Assembly: GCA_042408215.1 (NCBI GenBank)
Contig: JAYFMW010000006.1
Span: 128,001 to 192,000, forward strand
Direction of reading: 5' to 3'
DNA length: 64,000 nucleotides
Source: Microcoleus sp.
GTDB taxonomy: Bacteria > Cyanobacteriota > Cyanobacteriia > Cyanobacteriales > Microcoleaceae
The notes under the pieces were generated by a model that saw nothing but the letters and a program-made list of their open reading frames with translations, was not told the DNA's origin and did not search any database. The position numbers were made by a program, and so were the translations under genes. Positions 5,847-16,645 of the stretch are shown one piece after another. How positions within the stretch are numbered: position 1 is the stretch's first letter; every line of letters begins with the position of its first letter.

Positions 5847-6313
5847 TGATTGTTTAGCTCGCCTGAAAGTTCTTTACTTATATATTGTAACGTTATGTAA
5901 CAGAGATTAATTTAGTGGCGGATTTAATTTGGGCGACAACTAGCCGCACAGAGGCAGAAACCGGGTTTTTTACCAAAATACTGCATCGCAGCCTTTAAAT
6001 AAAATGAAAAACCCGGTTTCTTTGGTATCTATGCGTCCAGGGCTAATACAGGACATTTCCACTGATGCACTAAATCTGTGCGATGTCAATAGAGAGTTGA
6101 GTTTAAAGGGCGATCGCACTTAATTTGTAGGTGTTCAAAAAGGGCGATCGCACTTAATGCTTGTTCAATAAAAGGCGAACCAGACAGACACCGGGTTTTT
6201 CAGAAATATCTGGTTTGGAGCTAAAGCAGCGATCGCAACGCATTTAGTCCTTGACAAAAATATCCTTTTCAGTTACGATAAAACTTAATACTAAATATTT
6301 TAATTTATGCCTG

Positions 6314-6736
6314 ATGAAACAAACAAATTTGCATGAATTAAATGAGCAAGTTTTGTTAGAGGAAACTCAGCCTCTAGCAATAGAGTATAATGGGCGATTA
6401 GTTGGCTATTTTTATCCAGTGAGTGCAATGCCAAGTGCGATGGAGGAAATCGATCGCACTTTTACAAATTTAGTACAACAATGGCGCAATGAAACAATAG
6501 GTATTTCCTCTACTACGGATTTAGTGATGCACCCTGCTTACCAACAAATTATTAGGATGGGTTCAGTAGTAATTCCTCTGTTATTAAGGGAAGTGGAAAG
6601 AAAGTCGGGGCGTTGGTTTCATGCTCTGTGTGAAATTACTGGAGAAGATCCAGTACCTTTAGAAAAACGGGGTAAAACTAAAGAGATGACTCAGTTATGG
6701 TTAGAGTGGGGGAAAGCCAAAGGTTACAAATGGTAG
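6314..6736 (+). CDS. Hypothetical protein: Phd/YefM-like N-terminus plus helical HPAYQQII domain; putative antitoxin
   Basis: PLAIEYNGRLVGYFYP resembles the Phd beta-hairpin; HPAYQQIIRMG..VIPLLLRE...WF.AL..ITGEDPV. Confidence 0.6.
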   Translation: MKQTNLHELNEQVLLEETQPLAIEYNGRLVGYFYPVSAMPSAMEEIDRTFTNLVQQWRNETIGISSTTDLVMHPAYQQIIRMGSVVIPLLLREVERKSGRWFHALCEITGEDPVPLEKRGKTKEMTQLWLEWGKAKGYKW

Positions 6737-7203
6737 AAAATAATGCTTGGATGCAAAATATTAAAGAATGGATTGAACAAAATCATCCTAATTTAGTGAC
6801 AACGGGATATAAAATTACCAGTTCAGACACAACTGATTATAATTGTATTGCTTGGGCTGCTGGAAATACAGAAGAATGGTGGTGGCCAGATGCCAAAGGT
6901 GGAGACTATTGGCCGCCTAATATACCGCGAGAGGAATCTCTGACTGCTTTTATGATGGCTTATCAAACTTTAGGGTATGAAGTCTGTGAAAATGCTTTGC
7001 TGGAAGCTGGTTTTGAAAAGATAGCGATTTATGTTTTAGATGGAAAACCTCAACACGCCTCCCGACAACTTCCTAATGGGAAGTGGACTAGCAAATTAGG
7101 TCAGTATGAGGATATAGAACATAATTATTTAGAGGGTTTAGAAGGTAGTATATATGGTGAAGTTGCTTGTGTGATGAAAAGGCGTTTGATTGAGGGGGAG
7201 TAA
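6730..7203 (+). CDS. DUF7689-like protein, probable Cys/His papain-like fold
   Basis: YNCIAWA, WWWP, QHASRQ, GKWTSKLG; start overlaps the upstream stop. Confidence 0.65.
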   Translation: MVENNAWMQNIKEWIEQNHPNLVTTGYKITSSDTTDYNCIAWAAGNTEEWWWPDAKGGDYWPPNIPREESLTAFMMAYQTLGYEVCENALLEAGFEKIAIYVLDGKPQHASRQLPNGKWTSKLGQYEDIEHNYLEGLEGSIYGEVACVMKRRLIEGE

Positions 7204-7245
7204 TAAACTCATCAAAAGCGCGATCGCATCTCAGCCTGAGACTTG

Positions 7246-7580
7246 AGAAACCGGGTTTCTGTGATATCTCTGATTTTCACCAAGAATCTCTCATCAGAAA
7301 CCCGGTTTCTTTGGCCCTGCGTAAGTCCTAATTTATTTAGACTTGGGATGATCTTGACACACTTTTAACTTTTGTTTTTCCTCTGGACGAGTAACGAAAT
7401 AATCTTCGCCCCAACAGTCAGAAACCGGGTTTCTCATAGATATCTAGTTTTAGCCAACAATCTCTAAGCAGAAACCCGGTTTCTTTCGTCCTGCGTAAGT
7501 CCTAATTTATTTAGACTTGGAATGATCTTGACACACTTTTAACTTTTGTTTTTCCTCTGGACGAGTAACGAAATAATCTT
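7246..7580. repeat. Tandem duplication of an AGAAACCGGGTTT palindrome plus the last ~25 codons of the CHAT-STAND gene
   Basis: 7318-7404 is nearly identical to 7494-7580, and each copy is preceded by the same palindromic element. Confidence 0.85.
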
Positions 7581-10500
7581 TTAACCAGTCGCACCCTGTC
7601 GCTAATAGTTCATCTAAGTTCTGATTGCGCCAAATCATCACTTTTATACCGCCAGTGGCTATATATTTCCCATCTGGGCTAAATTGGATTAACCCTTGAC
7701 CTTGTTCGGGAACAGTATATTTAGCAATTAGTTTCCCGGCTATACTCCAGATGCTTAATTCATTGGGATAACCTAAAAAAGCAATTTGCTGACTATCAGG
7801 GCTAAAAGTCAAGGCATTTGGAGATTGTTGTAATTTAATTTGATTAATCAATTTGCCAGAAAAGTCCCATATCTTGATTGAATAATCTGTACCAGTTGTT
7901 GCTATTAATTTGCTGTCTGGACTAAAATAGACATCCATAATACCTGCTTTATTATCTAAGTCAATAAGTTTGTGGCTCTTTATATTCCTTAAGTGTAATT
8001 CTTTTCCGGGCAGATACCAGGTTGCTAAATATTTACTATCAGGACTAAATTTTGCAGTGTTTCCTAGCATGAGATCGGTTATATCAACAAATATAAATTT
8101 TTCACGAACAATATTTTTTTCTTCTATCTTATCATTGCGGGATTTTACTTTTATTTTAACAGAAGTACCTGCTTCCCCCTTGAGAAAATCATAAGCTTTC
8201 CATGCCTTACCTTTGAAATCAGACACTTGATGACCATTTATTTCTAAAATTATATCACCAGTCCTTAAGCCAGCTTTCATGGCTGTGGAATTTTGCCAAA
8301 CATCAAGTATTTTTACTCCGTAACCACGTTTAAAACCTTCAGTAAATGTTTCTTCTACAGAATGACCTAAATAAATTGCTATCATTGAATGTTCTTTGCC
8401 ATTTGCTGATGATTTATTATTAACATCTAACGGATTAATTAAATTTCCCGAAGCATCCCAAAGTTTAGCCATACCTGATGTGATAGTAAGAATATATTCA
8501 CCATTTGGACTAACTACAACTCGATGAATTATTTCAGGAAGAGAATCATGTTTTAATTGCTTGACTTGCTGAGTTGATAAATCCCAGAGACGGAGAGGAT
8601 TAGACGACTCTCTACCCAATTTGCCAAAGTTGTCAAAATTAAATCCCTTTGTGGCTATCTTGCTGCCATCAAAACTAGAACTATAAGTTTTATCGCCTAA
8701 ATAATTTCCAAAAGACAACGCCTGTAAGACTCTTTCTCCATTGCTTACAGTAGTTTTAACTTCTGAAATCAAGTTTCCTGTTAAATCATATTTTTTCACA
8801 GCTTCTTTAGTGACAAAGATGATAAATTTACCGTCAGGAGATACATTTGCAAAACTAAAATCGTCCACCATATTAATACTTTTAACTTTTGTTTCTTGCC
8901 AGTCCCAAACATCTAATACTCCATTATAAACATCTTGAATCAAAAGCTTTTCACCATCTGCACTATACTGTAAGTTTATCATTGTTGGATATTTTACACC
9001 ATTTACTCCTTCTTTTTCATAATTCTTAGGTAATTCTGTAACATTCTTAGGTAATTCTGTAACATAAGGTTGGGCTATACTCAATAATTTGAGTCCGTCA
9101 GTCCCTGAGATAAAAATTGTTTGACCATCAAGACTATAGCTTAAGCCAGAACCAAAAAGCGAACTTATTGTCAGTTGGTCAACCAGTTTTCCTGATCTAG
9201 CATCATATAATTTGACGGCTCCTTCACCTGGCATGACTGTAGCAATTTTTTGACCATCAGGACTAAAACTAACATCACCATTAGAAAAAAGTAATCCTGA
9301 AAAATTGAAATCTGCAATTTTTGGGCCTGATAAATCCCAAAGTCTAGCTATGAGGACAGTTGTTTGAGATGAATCAACATCTACCCCTAAAGTCAAAACT
9401 CGCTGTCCATCTTGACTCATCACTATTTTGGTAACTTGATTAGTATTAGCTTTAAATTCTCGGATTTTTTGCATGGTTTTTAAGTTCCAAAATTGCACCA
9501 TCCCAACAGCATCTCCTATCACAACTTCTTCACCATTAGCAGTAAATCCTAAACTTTGTATAGTCCCACCTCCGTTGGGTTTTAATTCCCTAAGTTTCCG
9601 ACCAGCCAAGTCAAAAAATATTATTTGAGTAGCAAATGCTGATACAGCAATATATTTACTATCTGGACTAAACTTAACAATATTAGCCCCTATTAAAGAT
9701 TGTATTTTAGCTATTTGTTTGCCAGTAAAATCCCAAATATATAAATTTCCTTCGTCATTAATAGTAACAATATATTTACCATTAGGACTCATCGCTAAAT
9801 CCTGAATACCTTGATTCTCTGGTTCATCCCATTCAGTAACTTTCTGACCTGATAAATTCCAAATTATCACTTTACCCCTCTTGGCGCTCAAGGAAACAAT
9901 TTGCTGACCGTCTGGAGTAATAATCACTTTGCCAATGACATTATCACTTTTAAACTCATTTTTTTCTCGAATATTGCTCGTAATAGTCTGTAAAGCCAAA
10001 AAAGGGCTATTAGTAGGATAATCTGCTAATGATTCACCATCTTTTACTAATTGTTTCAGCTTATATCCGGCTTCCAGTGCAATCTTTAAAGCATTGATTC
10101 CACCTTCTCCCGACTGAAATTGACTCAAAGCTAAATTGCCTAAACTATCAGTTTCACTAATTAGGCTTTGTCGTTCAGCCCGTTGCCATTGCCACACCGC
10201 CCCCACAGCAAAAATTGAAACAGCTAATAAACCACTCGTTAGACCTAAAATAGTACGGCGACGATTGCGATCGCGCAACCCCAACCCCAACTGAATAAAC
10301 TCCCCTTCCGCCTTACTTACATCCTCCAACCGTTGCAATAAATACCCCTCCGCCTCTCCCAAAGGTGCCCCTTGCAACAAATAACCCTCCTTATTCTCAT
10401 TCCTTTCCCACTCCTGAAACGCCACCTTTAACCGCTTTTTCCATCTCAAAAAAGTATCATTTTCCTCAATCCATTTCCTCAAATCAGGCCATGCTTTAAT

Positions 10501-12735
10501 CAAAGCCTCATGCACAATTTCCACCGTTTCTATCTCAGTCGTTTCATTTCGATTACTCACCACCAAACGTGCCGTCGCCAAATGCGTTACCAAATCCCAA
10601 TTTTCTTCCCCCACCTCAGCGCGAGTCGCCAGTTGGCGCGTGTATTCCGTCCCTTCTCCCGGCGACACCAACTTCATAAAAATCTGCTTTGTCCGTTCCT
10701 TATCCCCCTCTTTCAGCGCATCATATACCCCTTCCGCGTGTCGGCAAAGAGCCTTTTCTACCCCACCAATTTCATCATATTTCAGACGATTCAGCAAACC
10801 ATTTTCCTGCTGTTTCCAAAGTTCCGTAAGCGCAAATTCCAACAATGGCAAATTACCCTGTTCCTCACCAACTTCATTGAGAATATGTTCTGTCAATCCC
10901 GCTTCCAGATAGACATTTCTTTTCTTAGCAGGTTCCTCAATTGCCGCTTGCAATTCGGTTCTCGTCATCCCGCCGATAAATTCCGGTTTCCATCTGTCTA
11001 ACTGTTCCCTAAAAGGATTATATTCTATTGCCTGCCCCAAAAAATCAGCCCGCAGAGTAATCACCAATCTGAAGGATGAAAAATTTTGTACTGCATCCAA
11101 TAAACAATCTAAAAATTGCCGACTTTTCTGATTATGGTAAGTGTAAATTTCCTCAAATTGGTCAATTACTAACAGAAAACGCCGACTGCTACCGATGCTT
11201 CTTACCACATCGGACAAAGTGCGATTCCCTTCTTGCAAATCTATCGCCAGTTGGTTAATTTCATCCCCATTAACCTCAGCCACTCCCTCACTTTTACCCG
11301 TTTCTAATTGCGCCACAGGTGACAGCAGCGCTTTCGCCAAATTATCAAAAGGAGTAGATTCCGGGCGCAAATTAGCAATTAACCAGTTTTCTTGCTGACG
11401 CAAACTAGGAATCAAACCTGCCAATACTACCGAAGATTTCCCACTTCCAGAAGCACCAATTACAGCTACCAGTTTTTTAGTTTCTACAGCTTTTACAAGC
11501 TGATTAGTAAAAGTTTCTCGCCCAAAAAATAAGGCTGCATCTTTCTCCTGAAAAGCCGATAAACCCTGATAAGGATTAGGGGGAATTACTAAATCGTGCC
11601 AACGTAGCGGAATTTCCGCCGGATTTTGGCATAAAACAGGCAACCAACTGACACAGGGAACATCACTTTCTAAGATTTGTAACCGTTTTCGACTGTCACG
11701 GATAGCGGTAGATAAGGATAAACCGTGAGTATAAGCTTCTAGGAAATATTGGAGAAATTTAGGAGCAATTGCTATCGGTAAAATCTCCCGCATCACAATA
11801 ATTTGCGGCAAATATAAATCTTCGCCTTCTGCTAATTGATAGGCAATTCCTAACCCATCACAAGCATTAAAAATTGCTAATTTTAAACCATTATTTATAG
11901 CTCTTTTGAGATGATTCTTAATTTCATCAATTGTCAACCAGTCTTGAGAATTAATTTTAATCTTGCCGATACTTCCATCACTCTCTGTTTTTCCATGACC
12001 CGCAAAAAATAAAATATCCCATCTTTGCTCCCATAAAGGCGCATCTAAATCACTCCGTTGAGTTTCTCGTTGAGTTTCTTTTTTTAACCAACAAAATTCA
12101 GCATCAGGAATTAATTTCTGAATGACTGCTTCATCCGCATCAGTTCCCGCATTATCTCCCAAAATGACTAAAATTTTAACTTTCTCTTTTTTCCCTGAAT
12201 TTCCTGAAGTTTTAACCTGTTTAAACTTAGGAGAAGCTAAAACAATTTCCGCGTTAGGAATATGCTCTAATAAATTCCATGCACACCAAGGTAAACGCCG
12301 CAACCAATGATTTTCTGTAGCTAATAAAATTCTGGTGCTGGTTGAGTCTTGTAAATGATTAAGGAGTAAATTGACTATTGGTTGAAAATCGGGCGATTGT
12401 AACCAATCATTCAGATTTTTTGCTAATAACTTAGCCGCCTTTCTACAAGCTTCAAAAGCTTTATTTTTTACTTCTTCTAGATCGTCAGGACTTTTTACAG
12501 GATCTTTTTTGGCTGTTAAACGGCTCGGCCAAAATTCTTCTGTCTTGTTATATAAACGTCGCCAATGACGATACTGTTCCAATAGTTCAGGATGTGGGGG
12601 TAACTTTCCTGATGCACCCGCGATCGCTAAAATGACTTGATTTTTTGTTATTCCTCCATCTTGCCGCACTTCTGCCTGTACGACAAAACCCTTGTCAAAT
12701 TCCCCACTAATATTGAGAGTCACTAACTTTTCCAT
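7507..12735 (-). CDS. CHAT (caspase-like) - nSTAND1 NTPase - TM - WD40 repeat protein with inserted PDZ domain
   Basis: CHAT dyad FFAGHG/IFNACDG. NPYQGL..F, Walker A GASGSGKS, Walker B LLVIDQFEE. TM ILGLTSGLLAVSIFAVGAVW. Many FSPD WD40 repeats. PDZ GVKILDV..NS.A.KAGLRTGDIILEING. Confidence 0.88.
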   Translation of the reverse strand: MEKLVTLNISGEFDKGFVVQAEVRQDGGITKNQVILAIAGASGKLPPHPELLEQYRHWRRLYNKTEEFWPSRLTAKKDPVKSPDDLEEVKNKAFEACRKAAKLLAKNLNDWLQSPDFQPIVNLLLNHLQDSTSTRILLATENHWLRRLPWCAWNLLEHIPNAEIVLASPKFKQVKTSGNSGKKEKVKILVILGDNAGTDADEAVIQKLIPDAEFCWLKKETQRETQRSDLDAPLWEQRWDILFFAGHGKTESDGSIGKIKINSQDWLTIDEIKNHLKRAINNGLKLAIFNACDGLGIAYQLAEGEDLYLPQIIVMREILPIAIAPKFLQYFLEAYTHGLSLSTAIRDSRKRLQILESDVPCVSWLPVLCQNPAEIPLRWHDLVIPPNPYQGLSAFQEKDAALFFGRETFTNQLVKAVETKKLVAVIGASGSGKSSVVLAGLIPSLRQQENWLIANLRPESTPFDNLAKALLSPVAQLETGKSEGVAEVNGDEINQLAIDLQEGNRTLSDVVRSIGSSRRFLLVIDQFEEIYTYHNQKSRQFLDCLLDAVQNFSSFRLVITLRADFLGQAIEYNPFREQLDRWKPEFIGGMTRTELQAAIEEPAKKRNVYLEAGLTEHILNEVGEEQGNLPLLEFALTELWKQQENGLLNRLKYDEIGGVEKALCRHAEGVYDALKEGDKERTKQIFMKLVSPGEGTEYTRQLATRAEVGEENWDLVTHLATARLVVSNRNETTEIETVEIVHEALIKAWPDLRKWIEENDTFLRWKKRLKVAFQEWERNENKEGYLLQGAPLGEAEGYLLQRLEDVSKAEGEFIQLGLGLRDRNRRRTILGLTSGLLAVSIFAVGAVWQWQRAERQSLISETDSLGNLALSQFQSGEGGINALKIALEAGYKLKQLVKDGESLADYPTNSPFLALQTITSNIREKNEFKSDNVIGKVIITPDGQQIVSLSAKRGKVIIWNLSGQKVTEWDEPENQGIQDLAMSPNGKYIVTINDEGNLYIWDFTGKQIAKIQSLIGANIVKFSPDSKYIAVSAFATQIIFFDLAGRKLRELKPNGGGTIQSLGFTANGEEVVIGDAVGMVQFWNLKTMQKIREFKANTNQVTKIVMSQDGQRVLTLGVDVDSSQTTVLIARLWDLSGPKIADFNFSGLLFSNGDVSFSPDGQKIATVMPGEGAVKLYDARSGKLVDQLTISSLFGSGLSYSLDGQTIFISGTDGLKLLSIAQPYVTELPKNVTELPKNYEKEGVNGVKYPTMINLQYSADGEKLLIQDVYNGVLDVWDWQETKVKSINMVDDFSFANVSPDGKFIIFVTKEAVKKYDLTGNLISEVKTTVSNGERVLQALSFGNYLGDKTYSSSFDGSKIATKGFNFDNFGKLGRESSNPLRLWDLSTQQVKQLKHDSLPEIIHRVVVSPNGEYILTITSGMAKLWDASGNLINPLDVNNKSSANGKEHSMIAIYLGHSVEETFTEGFKRGYGVKILDVWQNSTAMKAGLRTGDIILEINGHQVSDFKGKAWKAYDFLKGEAGTSVKIKVKSRNDKIEEKNIVREKFIFVDITDLMLGNTAKFSPDSKYLATWYLPGKELHLRNIKSHKLIDLDNKAGIMDVYFSPDSKLIATTGTDYSIKIWDFSGKLINQIKLQQSPNALTFSPDSQQIAFLGYPNELSIWSIAGKLIAKYTVPEQGQGLIQFSPDGKYIATGGIKVMIWRNQNLDELLATGCDWLKDYFVTRPEEKQKLKVCQDHSKSK

Positions 12736-12798
12736 AAAAATCCCCGATTTTATGAATTGCCAACTGGATCAATATTGAACTTGTTTGAAATTTATCAT

Positions 12799-12902
12799 TA
12801 GGACTTATGCAAAGAAACCGGGTTTCTATGAAAATCGTTCGTTTCCCAACTAGATATCTACAAAGAAACCCGGTTTCTGCCCTCAGCGTGCGTAAGTCCT
12901 GT
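12799..12902. repeat. Palindromic repeat (AGGACTTA(C/T)GCA...TGCGTAAGTCCT shell with GAAACCGGGTTT core)
   Basis: Related copies at ~5957-6043, 7246-7331, 7420-7504 and 16487-16561. Confidence 0.8.
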
Positions 12903-12996
12903 ATCATATTTCTCAATGGGGCAACTATACCACATTCATTACCCAAGTTGCCTCTCGGTTTACAAATCGTCACAAATGCCCCAAAAGCCATCGGGA

Positions 12997-14022
12997 TTAA
13001 ATTACAAAATCTTCTGTTACTACCACATCGCCCAAAACTAATTGTACTGAAAATTCTTCTCCTACTTCCCCTTCAAATTGACATCGCATGAAAACATCAG
13101 CACTTCTAGCTATCACCTCTTGAAACACTTCATTTTCACTTAAAACAAGCAGTTTCAAACTGGGAGGTAGATAGATATCATTGCCAGTTGGATAAACTCG
13201 CAAAGTTATTTCTACACTAGAGGAATCATCATTTTCACGGCTTAAATTAATCAGTAAGACTACAGAATGACTTAACAAATCTGCTCGCAAATCAATTAAT
13301 TTTCCCCGTTCAAGTTTTTGAGTCCTTGCAGTAGCTTGTAACTGTTGGGGATTTAATAATTCTGTTACGGCTTGCCATCCTGTGGTAAAAGTATTGTCAA
13401 ACCATTGACTAAAATTCACTCGTTCTTTGTTTGGAACAACCTGCACGTCCAAAACAGGGACTCCCAACCTTTTAGAAAGTACCCCTTCTCTAAACAAAAC
13501 TTCAATTTGTTCGCATGATGACCGAGAACCTTGCCAATGTATAATTAGACTCCCTCTCTCAATTTTTTGTATTTTCATCTGATTAGCTCCTAAAATTTGC
13601 TTCATTTTTTCTTCCAAGGTTCTTAAGATTTCTTCTGAAACCTCAACATCGCAAGTCATAACTAGAAGGGTTTCTTCCTTCTCTTTTACATCTTCGCTTT
13701 TGCGATAGCCTTTATTGACAAAAAGAATGATCGGATCTCTCCAATTTTTAATTTGACCGCCAGTTAATCTTTCGATAGTCTTATATAAACCGCTTTGTGT
13801 GATTTTAACTCTTGTAGTTTCTACGGCATCATAAAGCTGATCAGACATTTGTATTGGCTCAATACCAGAGAGCAATAAACATAAATATTGTTTTTCATAG
13901 TCTCCGATACCTTTACCATTATTTAACCTCCTGTGTCTCTCTTCCAAATCATTAAACAACTGCTTAATTTTCCATGTCCGAGCAGCCTCTTGACAACAGT
14001 CTGGTAATTCTTGGGATAACAT
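12997..14022 (-). CDS. DUF1822 family protein with N-terminal HTH-like and central TRADD-N-like domains
   Basis: C-terminal VNFSQWF....GWQ...LRVYPTG..YLPPSLKL..L is DUF1822-like. N-terminal EKQYLCLLLSG..P..M..L..KNWRD is HTH-like. Middle IERGSL.I...GS....IE.LF.EG.L. Confidence 0.75.
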   Translation of the reverse strand: MLSQELPDCCQEAARTWKIKQLFNDLEERHRRLNNGKGIGDYEKQYLCLLLSGIEPIQMSDQLYDAVETTRVKITQSGLYKTIERLTGGQIKNWRDPIILFVNKGYRKSEDVKEKEETLLVMTCDVEVSEEILRTLEEKMKQILGANQMKIQKIERGSLIIHWQGSRSSCEQIEVLFREGVLSKRLGVPVLDVQVVPNKERVNFSQWFDNTFTTGWQAVTELLNPQQLQATARTQKLERGKLIDLRADLLSHSVVLLINLSRENDDSSSVEITLRVYPTGNDIYLPPSLKLLVLSENEVFQEVIARSADVFMRCQFEGEVGEEFSVQLVLGDVVVTEDFVI

Positions 14023-14073
14023 AATTTTTTGTTCCTCATATTTATGTATCCGTTAATCATAGCATACCGATCG

Positions 14074-14223
14074 TTAACGGGCATTAAAATTTTATTAACA
14101 GTCATATTAATTGCTTCATGTTCTAATCAGGTCAGTGAAGCAAAGCAAGAAGCTATTCTTTAACGAGCGTTAAGGATTTTATTAATGCTCATATTAATTG
14201 CTTCATGGCATAACCATGTTAGT
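14074..14223. promoter_or_regulatory. Two ~64-bp imperfect direct repeats with TTAA-bounded palindromes in a divergent promoter region
   Basis: 14074-14136 vs 14160-14223 share TCATATTAATTGCTTCATG exactly; copy 2 contains the palindrome TTAACG-AG-CGTTAA. Confidence 0.55.
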
Positions 14224-14280
14224 CGTGACGATCCCTGATTTTCACAAAACTTATGAAACCAACAAAAGGAGACATTTTCT

Positions 14281-14598
14281 ATGTGGAACTGGATTAAAAA
14301 TTTATGGACCAGTGCAAAGAACTTAGTAGCCGCAATTTTTTGGGCTTTTATGGAATGGATTCTCTTCTTAATTGAAGTAGTTTATATCGCTTTCATAACG
14401 TCTGTGATATTGACTTACTTTCCATACGCTTACCTGCTTTACTTCATGTTCTATGTGCTTGATGGTGTGGCAGTTGTCGAAAGCTGGAACCCTCGTGAAT
14501 CACAAGGACGCTCGATAATTAGCAAGCTTGAACCAGTAACTTCTGGAGTTACTCAACCAAGCCGAGAGAAGGCTACTGTGTTACAAGCAACTAGATAA
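14281..14598 (+). CDS. Small membrane protein, hypothetical
   Basis: RBS AGGAG upstream; amphipathic N-terminus followed by a long hydrophobic stretch. Confidence 0.7.
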   Translation: MWNWIKNLWTSAKNLVAAIFWAFMEWILFLIEVVYIAFITSVILTYFPYAYLLYFMFYVLDGVAVVESWNPRESQGRSIISKLEPVTSGVTQPSREKATVLQATR

Positions 14599-14652
14599 AT
14601 GACAGTCTTCTTAAACGATCAATATCTACTTGTAAAAAAGGAGTAAAGAATC

Positions 14653-15222
14653 ATGCCACGCACGAGTAAAAGTCAGAAGATTGTTCTGAACCTCACCTTA
14701 GAATCAGACCACCCAGATAGCAAGTTAAAGCAAATGGACATCATCGGTGTCCCCGGTCAAAATCAAAATGGTAAGAACATTCTCAGTGACACGGTATTTT
14801 GCTTTTTGGATGATACGATAGGCCGTCCGATCTTTGCTGCTAGTCGGCAGATTCCTAAGCTGGATTGGCAAAAACTTACAGTCTGGCTATGTGCAAAAGA
14901 TGAAGATTCTCTAGGATATCAAGTTCCAACAATCGATGACCGAGACTTAGAGATGAAATCAAACATTCCTGAATCCAACCTGAAATTAATCTATGTCTTA
15001 GACAATGATTTGAAGGGGAATGAATATCGACGGTGGAAGAAAACATCTGAGGATATTTTTACACCGCTATTCAGGAAGTTTGTTCCGCCCCCTCAGTTAC
15101 CCAGTTCTTTTTCGTTTAACCCCTTTGGTTCCTTCATAGAATCTTTGGATTCTCGGATAGATCCTTACGCCAAGATGAAGCGAGAGCTATTTTTCGATGC
15201 CTTAGTCATTCAAATTGATTAA
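14653..15222 (+). CDS. Hypothetical protein
   Basis: 189-aa ORF with RBS AGGAG, co-oriented in a putative operon; no family recognised. Confidence 0.7.
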   Translation: MPRTSKSQKIVLNLTLESDHPDSKLKQMDIIGVPGQNQNGKNILSDTVFCFLDDTIGRPIFAASRQIPKLDWQKLTVWLCAKDEDSLGYQVPTIDDRDLEMKSNIPESNLKLIYVLDNDLKGNEYRRWKKTSEDIFTPLFRKFVPPPQLPSSFSFNPFGSFIESLDSRIDPYAKMKRELFFDALVIQID

Positions 15223-15299
15223 TGCAAAAATTTGTCCAAAAAGTAGGGACATAGCAGTGCTGTGTTCCTACTATCCAAACTACCTAAAAACAAAAAACT

Positions 15300-16331
15300 A
15301 TGCCAAGACCTGACAAGCTCAACGGATTTTTGAAGGCTACTGCTGAACTTCATTCTCTTAATGGGAAAAGCCATTTTAGCCCAGCCGACGAGGAAAAAGA
15401 GCCTGAAACTCTGAATAAATCTTCAGAGCCACCTATCGATCTAACAGCTTACTTGAGAAAGCCAAAATATTCTCTGGAGAGTTTTATCTTTCCTACAGAA
15501 AAAGCTCAACTTCAAGTTAAGAGAGTTTTGGCTGAGATTACATATCATGACCTGATTTACACAACTTGGGGGATGGGTGAAAAACATCCAACAGATGTTG
15601 GACTGTCAATCAATTGCTATGGACCTTCTGGCACGGGAAAAAGTATGCTGCTTGAAGTGATCGCCCACAGCTTAGGATTACAGGTTTTGGAAGTTCCCTC
15701 AACCGCATCTAAATTTGTAGGTGTCACTGAGCAGATCACTCAGGAAATTTTTGCCTTTGCGACAATCCATAACGCATTTATAGTTTGGAATGAAGCGGAC
15801 AGGGATTTTGGTAAACGGCTGGAGCAAGTGAGTCAATCAGCCGATGCAGGAGTTAATTCTGCTCGCAGTATTTTGCTTGATCAACTCTCTTCTTATAAGG
15901 GTGTTATTGGCTTAACTACCAATTTAGTGCATAACTATGATTCAGCTTTTGTTAGTCGGATTCGTTTTGAGATTCAACTTGATTTACCAGATGCAGAAGC
16001 ACGGGCTAAAATTTGGCAAGCTCAGATTCCGAATCAGTTGCCTCTTGATGAATCAGTAAACTTTACGCAACTAGCTGCACAGTTTGATGAGATTTCAGGA
16101 CGGGATATTAAGAAAGCTGTTTTGAATGCTGTAGCAAGTGCCGCAAGTGAAGACAAGCTAGACATTGAGAAGCGCGTTACCCAGTCTCACTTTATAGAGG
16201 CTATGGAGGAAGTAATTGCAGGCAAAAAAGCTGCTGAAAAGGGGGAACTGAAATTAACACCTGTCACGGAGAAGGTTGAGCTACCACCTCAACCATCCAT
16301 TGAATCTAAACCGCCAGCCGAAGCTGTTTAG
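15300..16331 (+). CDS. AAA+ ATPase
   Basis: Walker A GPSGTGKS, SKFVG.TE, variant Walker B FIVWNEAD, TTN...D.AFVSRI, ISGRDIK. Confidence 0.85.
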   Translation: MPRPDKLNGFLKATAELHSLNGKSHFSPADEEKEPETLNKSSEPPIDLTAYLRKPKYSLESFIFPTEKAQLQVKRVLAEITYHDLIYTTWGMGEKHPTDVGLSINCYGPSGTGKSMLLEVIAHSLGLQVLEVPSTASKFVGVTEQITQEIFAFATIHNAFIVWNEADRDFGKRLEQVSQSADAGVNSARSILLDQLSSYKGVIGLTTNLVHNYDSAFVSRIRFEIQLDLPDAEARAKIWQAQIPNQLPLDESVNFTQLAAQFDEISGRDIKKAVLNAVASAASEDKLDIEKRVTQSHFIEAMEEVIAGKKAAEKGELKLTPVTEKVELPPQPSIESKPPAEAV

Positions 16332-16645
16332 GAGCAGTCTCAACCTCCAGAATTTACAACATAAACGTTGTTGCAGTAGCTGCACAAGTAAGTGGTTGCT
16401 GTCGGGGCCTTGATTTGTTTGCTGTACTTTAAATTTTAGTAGCAAGCATATTTTCAATTCTGTTGTCTTCTCCCATTTCTAAGAATCAGGACTTACGTTT
16501 ATGGGGCTAGAAACCGGGTTTCTTTCTTCTCCTAGAAACCGGGTTTTTTGCGTAAGTCCTGAGAGTTGAAAAAGCTCTGCTCAATACCACTGTTGATATC
16601 GACCTGTTACGGGTCGATTTTTTATTTCTAAAAAACGCATAATTT

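Follow-up and report, generated by a model that had tools for sequence, protein, structure and literature searches.

A TRADD-N/caspase-STAND gene pair facing a rare AAA+ operon in Microcoleus: a candidate locus for sensor, switch and output

The TRADD-N, caspase-like and STAND proteins of bacteria are regarded as precursors of the signalling behind death and immunity in animals, and a locus of the cyanobacterium Microcoleus sp. raises the question of whether such proteins may be connected to a dedicated set of genes. The window, that is, the whole stretch of DNA that was analysed, comprises 64,000 nucleotides (contig JAYFMW010000006.1, positions 128,001 to 192,000; coordinates are those of the window unless another locus is named), and within it five open frames, all of them full length, form with a 258-bp divergent spacer (14023-14280) a block of ~9 kb. 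The minus strand encodes a large protein of 1742 aa with CHAT, nSTAND1, transmembrane (TM), WD40 and PDZ regions (7507-12735) and a 341-aa protein with a helix-turn-helix (HTH), a TRADD-like_N domain and the C-terminal part of DUF1822 (12997-14022). On the other side of the spacer, the plus strand encodes a small membrane protein of 105 aa (14281-14598), a 189-aa protein of a rare unnamed family (14653-15222) and a 343-aa AAA+ ATPase of the classical clade (15300-16331). In the reading preferred here, for which we see the chances as evenly balanced, the TRADD-N/caspase-STAND pair would be sensor and switch, the AAA+ operon the output and the 341-aa protein the transcription factor. The locus presents a concrete read-out, with a single TRADD-N protein that bears an HTH, a single 258-bp spacer in which a conserved block is repeated, and a single small operon, and if the 341-aa protein does regulate the operon, a bacterial route from a TRADD-type adaptor to gene expression becomes testable.

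Support for such regulation comes from what stands in front of the operon elsewhere. Relatives of the 189-aa gene were collected at 32 distinct loci, after two duplicate loci had been dropped and including a scan of genome contigs with a 3-row alignment, and the upstream side is assessable at 30 of them, the exceptions being due to a contig end and a broken gene. The usual order is a divergent gene, a ~143-aa and a ~113-aa paralogue, the 189-aa homologue, often a further paralogue, and the AAA+ gene, which follows at 29 of the 32 loci, one remnant included. The divergent neighbour is a standalone protein whose HTH belongs to the family of the 341-aa N-terminus at 15 of the 30 assessable loci (tblastn E 6e-9 to the 341-aa protein), a standalone HTH of a second, weakly related type at three (hhalign E 1.9e-4), and a protein of 449-482 aa containing this second type at four, two of which were scanned and both found to carry NB-ARC. 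One more HTH is truncated by a contig end; at two loci, those of the window and of the sister species G216, a 341-aa-type protein is followed by CHAT-STAND; at one the neighbour is an EAD4-NB-ARC-TPR protein, and at four nothing was recognised. An HTH-bearing neighbour is found altogether at 25 of the 30 loci. A STAND-linked protein occupies the regulator position at 5 to 7 loci, namely in the window, G216, L045, and L030 and L044 with their HTH-NB-ARC fusions, to which L081 and L082 can be added only because their HTH proteins are of like length. Judged from gene order and domain content, the module defined by this survey, a rare family of operons that encode a protein without any match in fold, is a separate one, of which the HTH divergent gene is part and which is repeatedly placed under STAND-type proteins. 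The first-pass annotation had proposed that the DUF1822 protein controls the divergent operon; as the 341-aa protein holds the position in which an HTH neighbour recurs, this proposal is indirectly supported, although not proven.

The HTH of the 341-aa protein, of LuxR/sigma-r4 type, covers aa ~8-110 (13693-14001, minus strand) and is recognised with a family profile. As a single sequence the N-terminal ~110 aa have no match in Pfam; a profile of 15 family members (A9), compared with the PDB, matches VraR (5hev, E 1.8e-4), 4wt0 (3.4e-4) and region 4 of sigma-H (3mzy, 2.8e-3), and also DesR and GerE, with many LuxR-type chains at E 1.8e-4 to 0.05. At the profile level the N-terminus is therefore assigned to the LuxR/GerE/sigma-region-4 type and predicted to bind DNA. 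The TRADD-like_N domain (aa 133-194, 13441-13626, minus strand; PF20694, E 5.5e-8, 32.9 bits against a cut-off of 23.7) scores above the Pfam threshold and covers the segment in which a resemblance to TRADD-N adaptors had first been noticed. The DUF1822 match (aa 200-340, 13003-13425, minus strand; PF08852) extends only over profile positions 224-370 of 370, the last 40%, which is less than the whole domain; full-length copies of DUF1822 are present elsewhere in the same genome. Of the arrangement that had been read from the translation, a TRADD-N segment flanked by an HTH and DUF1822, the HTH holds at the profile level and DUF1822 is present in its last part, not as a complete domain.

Relatives of the 341-aa protein keep the TRADD-N and DUF1822 part and carry at least three kinds of N-terminal HTH, the window type, an Xre-like type and a GerE type. 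The expectation that DUF1822 genes lie beside CHAT genes is borne out by six DUF1822-then-CHAT pairs in this genome; three are of the TRADD-N type, and three consist of a sigma-like gene with weak Sigma70 r2/r4 matches, a full DUF1822 gene and CHAT-X, X being CHASE2, NACHT or, in one case, a broken gene. At an own-genome paralogous locus (L018, G000:C17, 2605-3754, minus strand) an ORF of 176 aa shares 8 nt with the beginning of another ORF, of 208 aa, which has a weak TRADD-N match and the C-terminal part of DUF1822, and the two may be a split or frameshifted version of a 341-aa-like gene. The divergent neighbours of 341-aa-like genes elsewhere are likewise small membrane or secreted proteins, in favour of the preferred reading, with an FAD oxidoreductase in two genera. 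At L094 (5485-8669), L097 (4287-7209) and L101 (11278-14812), from two other genera, the TRADD-N-DUF1822 gene faces conserved small ORFs of 83-91 aa, some with hydrophobic or signal-like segments and joined by an additional 127-aa ORF in L094 and L101, and then a 670-705-aa FAD-dependent oxidoreductase (PF12831). The gap between the TRADD-N-DUF1822 and CHAT genes is 0.6-1.9 kb in other genera and contains small inserted gene pairs (L094 3413-4152, L096 10103-10653, L098 9247-9579, L101 9563-9937 and L093 5350-6888), which appear to be of XisH/XisI type and of toxin-antitoxin type.

The large protein, all of whose features lie on the minus strand, begins with a constant domain (aa 1-160, 12256-12735) that is conserved in 10 homologues and to which own-genome paralogues align from aa 2-3 onward. 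These ~160 aa have no match in Pfam and appear EACC2-like, fitting EACC2 by description only. The CHAT (caspase-fold) protease domain follows (aa 161-357, 11665-12255; PF12770, E 1.1e-10), and its catalytic dyad, His247 in FAGHG and Cys292 in NACDG, is invariant in all 10 aligned homologues. The nSTAND1 NTPase (aa 388-783, 10387-11574; PF20703, E 2e-116) is near full length, with profile positions 1-378 of 379, and has a Walker A motif GASGSGKS starting at aa 427 and LLVIDQFEE, readable in the translation, as Walker B. Domain scans place a WD40 beta-propeller region, the predicted sensor, at 7510-10035, with a PDZ domain (PDZ_6 in Pfam; aa 1480-1531, 8143-8298) inserted in it. The intact caspase-like dyad, STAND NTPase and WD40 repeats that had been seen in the translation are thus corroborated by Pfam matches and by the conserved residues. 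Between NTPase and WD40 lies a predicted TM helix (aa 828-848, 10192-10254; hydropathy 2.18), found in five of six homologues checked and missing in the positional orthologue of G216; since this single helix follows a basic cluster, RDRNRRR, the WD40/PDZ part is predicted to lie outside the cytoplasmic membrane and the protease-NTPase part in the cytoplasm. The CHAT paralogues of the same genome have variable C-termini, with nSTAND1-WD40(-PDZ), CHASE2, WD40 or NACHT. A complex prediction for the N-terminal 390 aa of the large protein with aa 126-341 of the 341-aa protein gave a score of 0.26, for a mark of 0.32.

Among the products of the plus-strand trio, the 105-aa protein is hydrophobic over aa 13-60 and belongs to a family of small hydrophobic paralogues (~105-147 aa) with an E[IV]WDP[RK]-like motif and a conserved C-terminal tail, of which operons at other loci encode two to four. 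The 189-aa protein has no match in Pfam, NCBIfam, PADLOC or PHROGs. Its family was detected in 8 of 401 genomes sampled across the phylum, in 15 of the 144 genomes of a Microcoleaceae-family scan, and as 44 representative clusters among 1.84 billion proteins (E<=0.001). The AlphaFold model is confident (pLDDT 85.4, pTM 0.80); VIA-align against 48,161 chains gave a best Z of 2.6 and none at >=5, and nothing beyond chance came from a PDB profile search (only a 0.06 match) or from an Atlas feature search (best 0.85). The idea of a HORMA/TRIP13-like couple formed by this protein and the ATPase is unsupported, no HORMA being among the 50 entries listed (best Z 2.6), and the weak PADLOC match of the ATPase to TRIP13 is on the lid only. 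The 343-aa ATPase is an AAA protein (PF00004, E 1.4e-13) whose closest solved relatives are AFG2, VAT and Cdc48 and which matches PAN models well below the cut-off; it has Walker A GPSGTGKS, Walker B WNEAD, a pore loop KFVG, TTN (sensor-1) and SRIR (Arg fingers). In one of the 44 clusters (P0082, 392 aa) a small CHAT domain, with 26.3 bits on PF12770 for a cut-off of 24 and with FSGHG and LNACYS present, is fused without interruption to a 189-aa-family domain. The N-terminal caspase-like module of this type is promiscuous: of 401 genomes of the order, 142 have it, joined to C-termini of many kinds; no second CHAT-189-aa fusion was seen in those 401 genomes, and a metagenome scan for the fusion protein returned no locus. 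As a link between the pair and the operon, the fused sequence is real but thin.

Some loci of the operon family depart from the usual layout. At L045 a 189-aa relative (9983-10558, plus strand) without a detectable AAA+ gene adjoins the EAD4-NB-ARC-TPR protein (7199-9652, minus strand). Outside the genus, the trio has its closest relative at L089 (G515:C167, 7046-15499), which encodes an AAA+ protein 70% identical to that of the window and with the same WNEAD, together with a 301-aa unrecognised divergent gene, a Uma2-family gene and a TPR-CHAT protein 3 kb away. STAND, EAD4, Uma2 and methylase genes are among the neighbours of the operon-family loci. Standalone HTHs of the family seen in the 341-aa protein also occur in two genomes of the genus (L055 2088-2303, plus strand; L065 1046-1258, minus strand), each divergent to a small membrane peptide of 70 aa that is rich in glycine.

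The composition of the block and its spacer agree with the first-pass annotation, which had described a HIP1-poor block of two minus-strand and three plus-strand genes sharing a 258-bp divergent region with duplicated motifs. HIP1 (GCGATCGC) occurs twice in the region, for 9.3 occurrences expected from the rest of the window (Poisson P=0.005), and G+C is 0.383 versus 0.461 in the comparison. The spacer contains direct repeats of 48 nt (14089-14136/14176-14223, 81%) and 17 nt (14071-14087/14157-14173, 82%), which form an 87-bp tandem duplication (14071-14136 / 14157-14223) with copies spaced 86-87 bp, and the block 14023-14150 is ~95% identical in G216.

As envisaged here, the WD40/PDZ part, predicted to be outside the cytoplasmic membrane, would sense a cue; nSTAND1 would then, on the model of the apoptosome, oligomerise and turn on the CHAT protease; the 341-aa protein would dock on the protease module with its DUF1822 part and be cut or released; its HTH would alter transcription from the 258-bp spacer; and the small protein, acting on membranes and handled by the 189-aa protein together with the AAA+ unfoldase, would lead to growth arrest or cell death in the filament, in an abortive-infection-like manner. 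The output activity of the operon is the least supported step of this mechanism. A broader formulation is more tentative, and we place it somewhat short of an even chance: a membrane-spanning caspase-STAND receptor would signal to a TRADD-N adaptor fused to a DNA-binding domain and through it to a dedicated effector operon of small membrane proteins, a new-fold protein and an AAA+ unfoldase, as a bacterial pathway from "death receptor to transcription" whose modules are re-assorted exactly at domain borders, the operon being an undescribed cassette under plain HTH, HTH-STAND or TRADD-N/caspase control.

Several observations weigh against coupling of the pair to the operon. Full-length 341-aa-like genes occur in 14 of the 144 genomes of the family scan, and seven genomes have both these and the 189-aa gene; pair and operon are adjacent in only two, the window genome (G000) and G216, both of one genus. 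In the other five of the seven they lie on different contigs, where the operon has a small HTH gene of its own, and a conserved five-gene system, as first suggested for this region, finds no support in this check of synteny. Between the HTH of the 341-aa protein and the operon-linked regulators the identity is only 24-27%, and standalone HTHs that share 62-67% identity with those regulators are also found where no such operon is near; on these two grounds a capture of the 341-aa HTH from the operon's own regulator was rejected. The window locus is devoid of the ~143-aa membrane paralogue found at most loci, and the WNEAD of its ATPase has Asn for Asp, as in 3 of 27 relatives, FFDEAD being present in 24 of 27. 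The large protein of the window is a chimera, and its G216 orthologue is without the TM helix, which makes the topology of the sensor uncertain. The spacer block, lastly, is recognisable and likewise duplicated upstream of a 341-aa-like gene in G404, which has no operon; because it accompanies the TRADD-N gene there, it may serve the promoter of the 341-aa gene and would belong first of all to the upstream region of that gene.

In the main rival reading, which is possible if on the whole unlikely, two unrelated modules have come to lie side by side in a variable island; the pair would regulate itself or distant genes and the operon would have lost its own HTH gene when the pair landed. Pair and operon are each found alone far more often than together, the spacer block goes with the TRADD-N gene in the operon-less G404, 4 of the 30 assessable operon loci have no recognisable regulator, and the site is variable. 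In the complete genome G156, of the same genus, the gap between ArsA and DUF2358 measures 167 bp and window 5948-16616 is absent; in G447, also of this genus, the locus (L105, G447:C1:1025500-1029500) consists of DUF7689, a 560-nt remnant of the caspase region (matching window 11730-12305) and DUF2358, and from this remnant the island was once present there and has been mostly deleted. Across the genomes compared, the five genes behave as one block of a variable island, either present together or absent together. The regulator position, however, is held by an HTH protein at 25 of 30 loci and by a STAND-linked protein at 5 to 7, and G216 conserves the order and orientation of the five genes despite a different readable flank: its sequence beyond the CHAT gene differs from the window, and on the AAA+ side the contig ends after 534 bp, a stretch that is also without a match in the window.

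The mosaic structure of the locus bears on the same question. By blastn, 7470-10176 (sensor), 13373-14140 (TRADD-N, HTH and spacer block) and 14232-16296 (operon) follow G216 with 83-85% nucleotide identity, and a tract of 3.2 kb between them (10174-13408) is 90% identical over 3259 nt to a paralogue on contig 30 of the same genome. This recombination tract contains the DUF1822 part, the gap between the minus-strand genes, the EACC2-like domain, the caspase, nSTAND1 and the TM helix, and its breakpoints lie just past the TM helix (~aa 853) and at the TRADD-N/DUF1822 border (~aa 205). On these alignments, recombination has made the locus a mosaic whose breakpoints coincide with domain borders, an instance of modular exchange of the protease-NTPase core between paralogous loci. 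Since the segment identities split between G216 and the contig-30 paralogue, the core and the DUF1822 part were exchanged as one piece, while the sensor, the output domain and the operon stayed together; co-exchange alone is no proof of interaction, because the exchanged parts are contiguous DNA. The co-inheritance of HTH, sensor and operon across the core swap speaks against modules that are unrelated.

A second alternative keeps the signalling and changes its purpose to envelope stress or cell-cell signalling instead of defence. A periplasmic PDZ/WD40 sensor would, through proteolysis, free a sigma-region-4-like protein, in the way of DegS/RseP-RseA-sigmaE, and the AAA+ protein and the small proteins would act in the quality control of membrane proteins. 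This would accommodate the PDZ domain and the predicted N-in/C-out TM helix, the resemblance of the three-gene variants (sigma-like gene, full DUF1822, CHAT) to a sigma, anti-sigma and protease arrangement, and the relationship of the AAA+ protein to unfoldases of the Cdc48/PAN/FtsH type, to which it is nearest. We regard it as improbable, given the patchy distribution of the 189-aa protein (8/401 phylum genomes; 44 clusters) and the low G+C, HIP1 depletion, recombining paralogues and STAND, EAD4, Uma2 and methylase neighbours, which are typical of conflict islands and not of housekeeping stress systems. Finally, a decaying or mis-assembled chimera without a working output would explain a TM helix placed by gene conversion before a sensor that has none in G216, the change of the Walker B Asp to Asn, the missing membrane paralogue, the deletion of most of the island in G447 and the broken CHAT gene of another paralogue, but it is very improbable in view of five full-length open frames with intact catalytic and P-loop residues, of a WNEAD and reduced gene set common to three loci in three genomes (G000, G216 and G515) and hence inherited rather than fresh damage, and of runs from two studies that yield contigs identical to the window over the spacer, possibly including the sample behind the window assembly itself.

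Further observations concern the minus-strand genes and their surroundings. A 94-aa ORF (12707-12991, minus strand) that overlaps the CHAT gene at its start is unlikely to be a gene, its conservation being accounted for by this overlap and by nucleotide identity to the paralogue; in G216 the gap between the two minus-strand genes is 24 bp. Part of this gap in the window (12797-12926) is strain-variable, with one mat-metagenome contig skipping 128 nt and many contigs ending there, and short contigs from RNA libraries link 12809-12827 with 12862-12880 in either orientation, pointing to a small element of repeat or hairpin type; Rfam gave no match in 12600-14400. The contigs of one RNA run, a sediment metatranscriptome, cover 12009-12780 and pieces at 12809-12880 and 13348-13410, and none of the operon, and are uninformative on expression. 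The final ~110-140 nt of the CHAT-STAND gene recur immediately downstream of it (copies 7296-7406 and 7470-7613). The two copies align with one and the same 3' segment in the contig-30 paralogue (97% and 94%) and in G216, and may represent a recombination scar. Within the stretch absent from G156, positions 6251-7203 (plus strand) encode a 161-aa ORF and a DUF7689 protein (PF24738, E 5.9e-47).

Several known systems resemble the proposed pathway of pair and operon in part. Like the Apaf-1/CED-4 apoptosome and the Avs/NACHT NLR-like defence proteins, the large protein has its protease or effector, its STAND NTPase and its repeat sensor on a single polypeptide, and activation by oligomerisation is expected; in contrast to them, its protease is fused in cis, it has a predicted TM helix and the proposed output is transcriptional instead of direct killing. 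The DegS/RseP-RseA-sigmaE cascade is alike on paper in its PDZ-bearing sensor, its proteolysis and the release of a DNA-binding protein of sigma-region-4 type, but the proteases are not homologous, a caspase-fold enzyme and a STAND NTPase replacing the serine and metalloproteases. With IetAS, composed of the AAA+ protein IetA and the protease IetS, the similarity lies in the 343-aa ATPase, which matches PADLOC IetA (E 3.5e-16) and NCBIfam IteA with 53 bits, far from the cut-off of 510 bits; the operon is, moreover, without an IetS-like protease, the partners being small membrane proteins and the 189-aa protein. Transcription regulators fused to STAND NTPases are represented by the MalT/AfsR type, to which the HTH-NB-ARC divergent genes at L030 and L044 of the operon family correspond; in the window, the NTPase and the HTH belong to different proteins, whose connection would at most run through TRADD-N/DUF1822 and the protease.

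The TRADD-N/EACC2-caspase systems of multicellular cyanobacteria, for which a full-text search found computational work only and no experiments in print, were defined by comparative genomics (Kaur et al., 2021, eLife; PMC8195603). According to the text passages of that study, TRADD-N proteins have variable N-terminal domains, an ECF-like HTH among them, and the neighbouring gene encodes a constant N-terminal alpha+beta domain (EACC2), a caspase and a highly variable C-terminus, for which STAND NTPase, PDZ, CHASE2, kinase and TM-linked extracellular domains are named; a transcriptional last step and a role in counter-invader immunity or programmed death are put forward as computational proposals. 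These passages name no target operon for the TRADD-N systems, and the source data of the figures may list the architecture found here. The window agrees with their description in having TRADD-N between an HTH and a C-terminal domain and an adjoining caspase gene with a variable C-terminus. It differs in that the TRADD-N protein ends in the last 40% of DUF1822, which the passages present as a separate gene in TRADD-N-independent variants, and in that its HTH is LuxR/sigma-r4-like without a Pfam sigma match. The variants with ECF-sigma, DUF1822 and EACC2-caspase genes have counterparts at three loci of this genome; the window has one polypeptide where these have two, with TRADD-N in place of the first 60% of DUF1822, and from its domains the 341-aa protein appears to unite the DNA-binding role and the DUF1822 role by fusion. 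By domain architecture the minus-strand pair extends by one member a kind already known from computational work, and what the window would add to the descriptions found in print is the coupling of such a pair to a defined rare operon, the HTH-TRADD-N-DUF1822(C) fusion and the domain-border mosaic.

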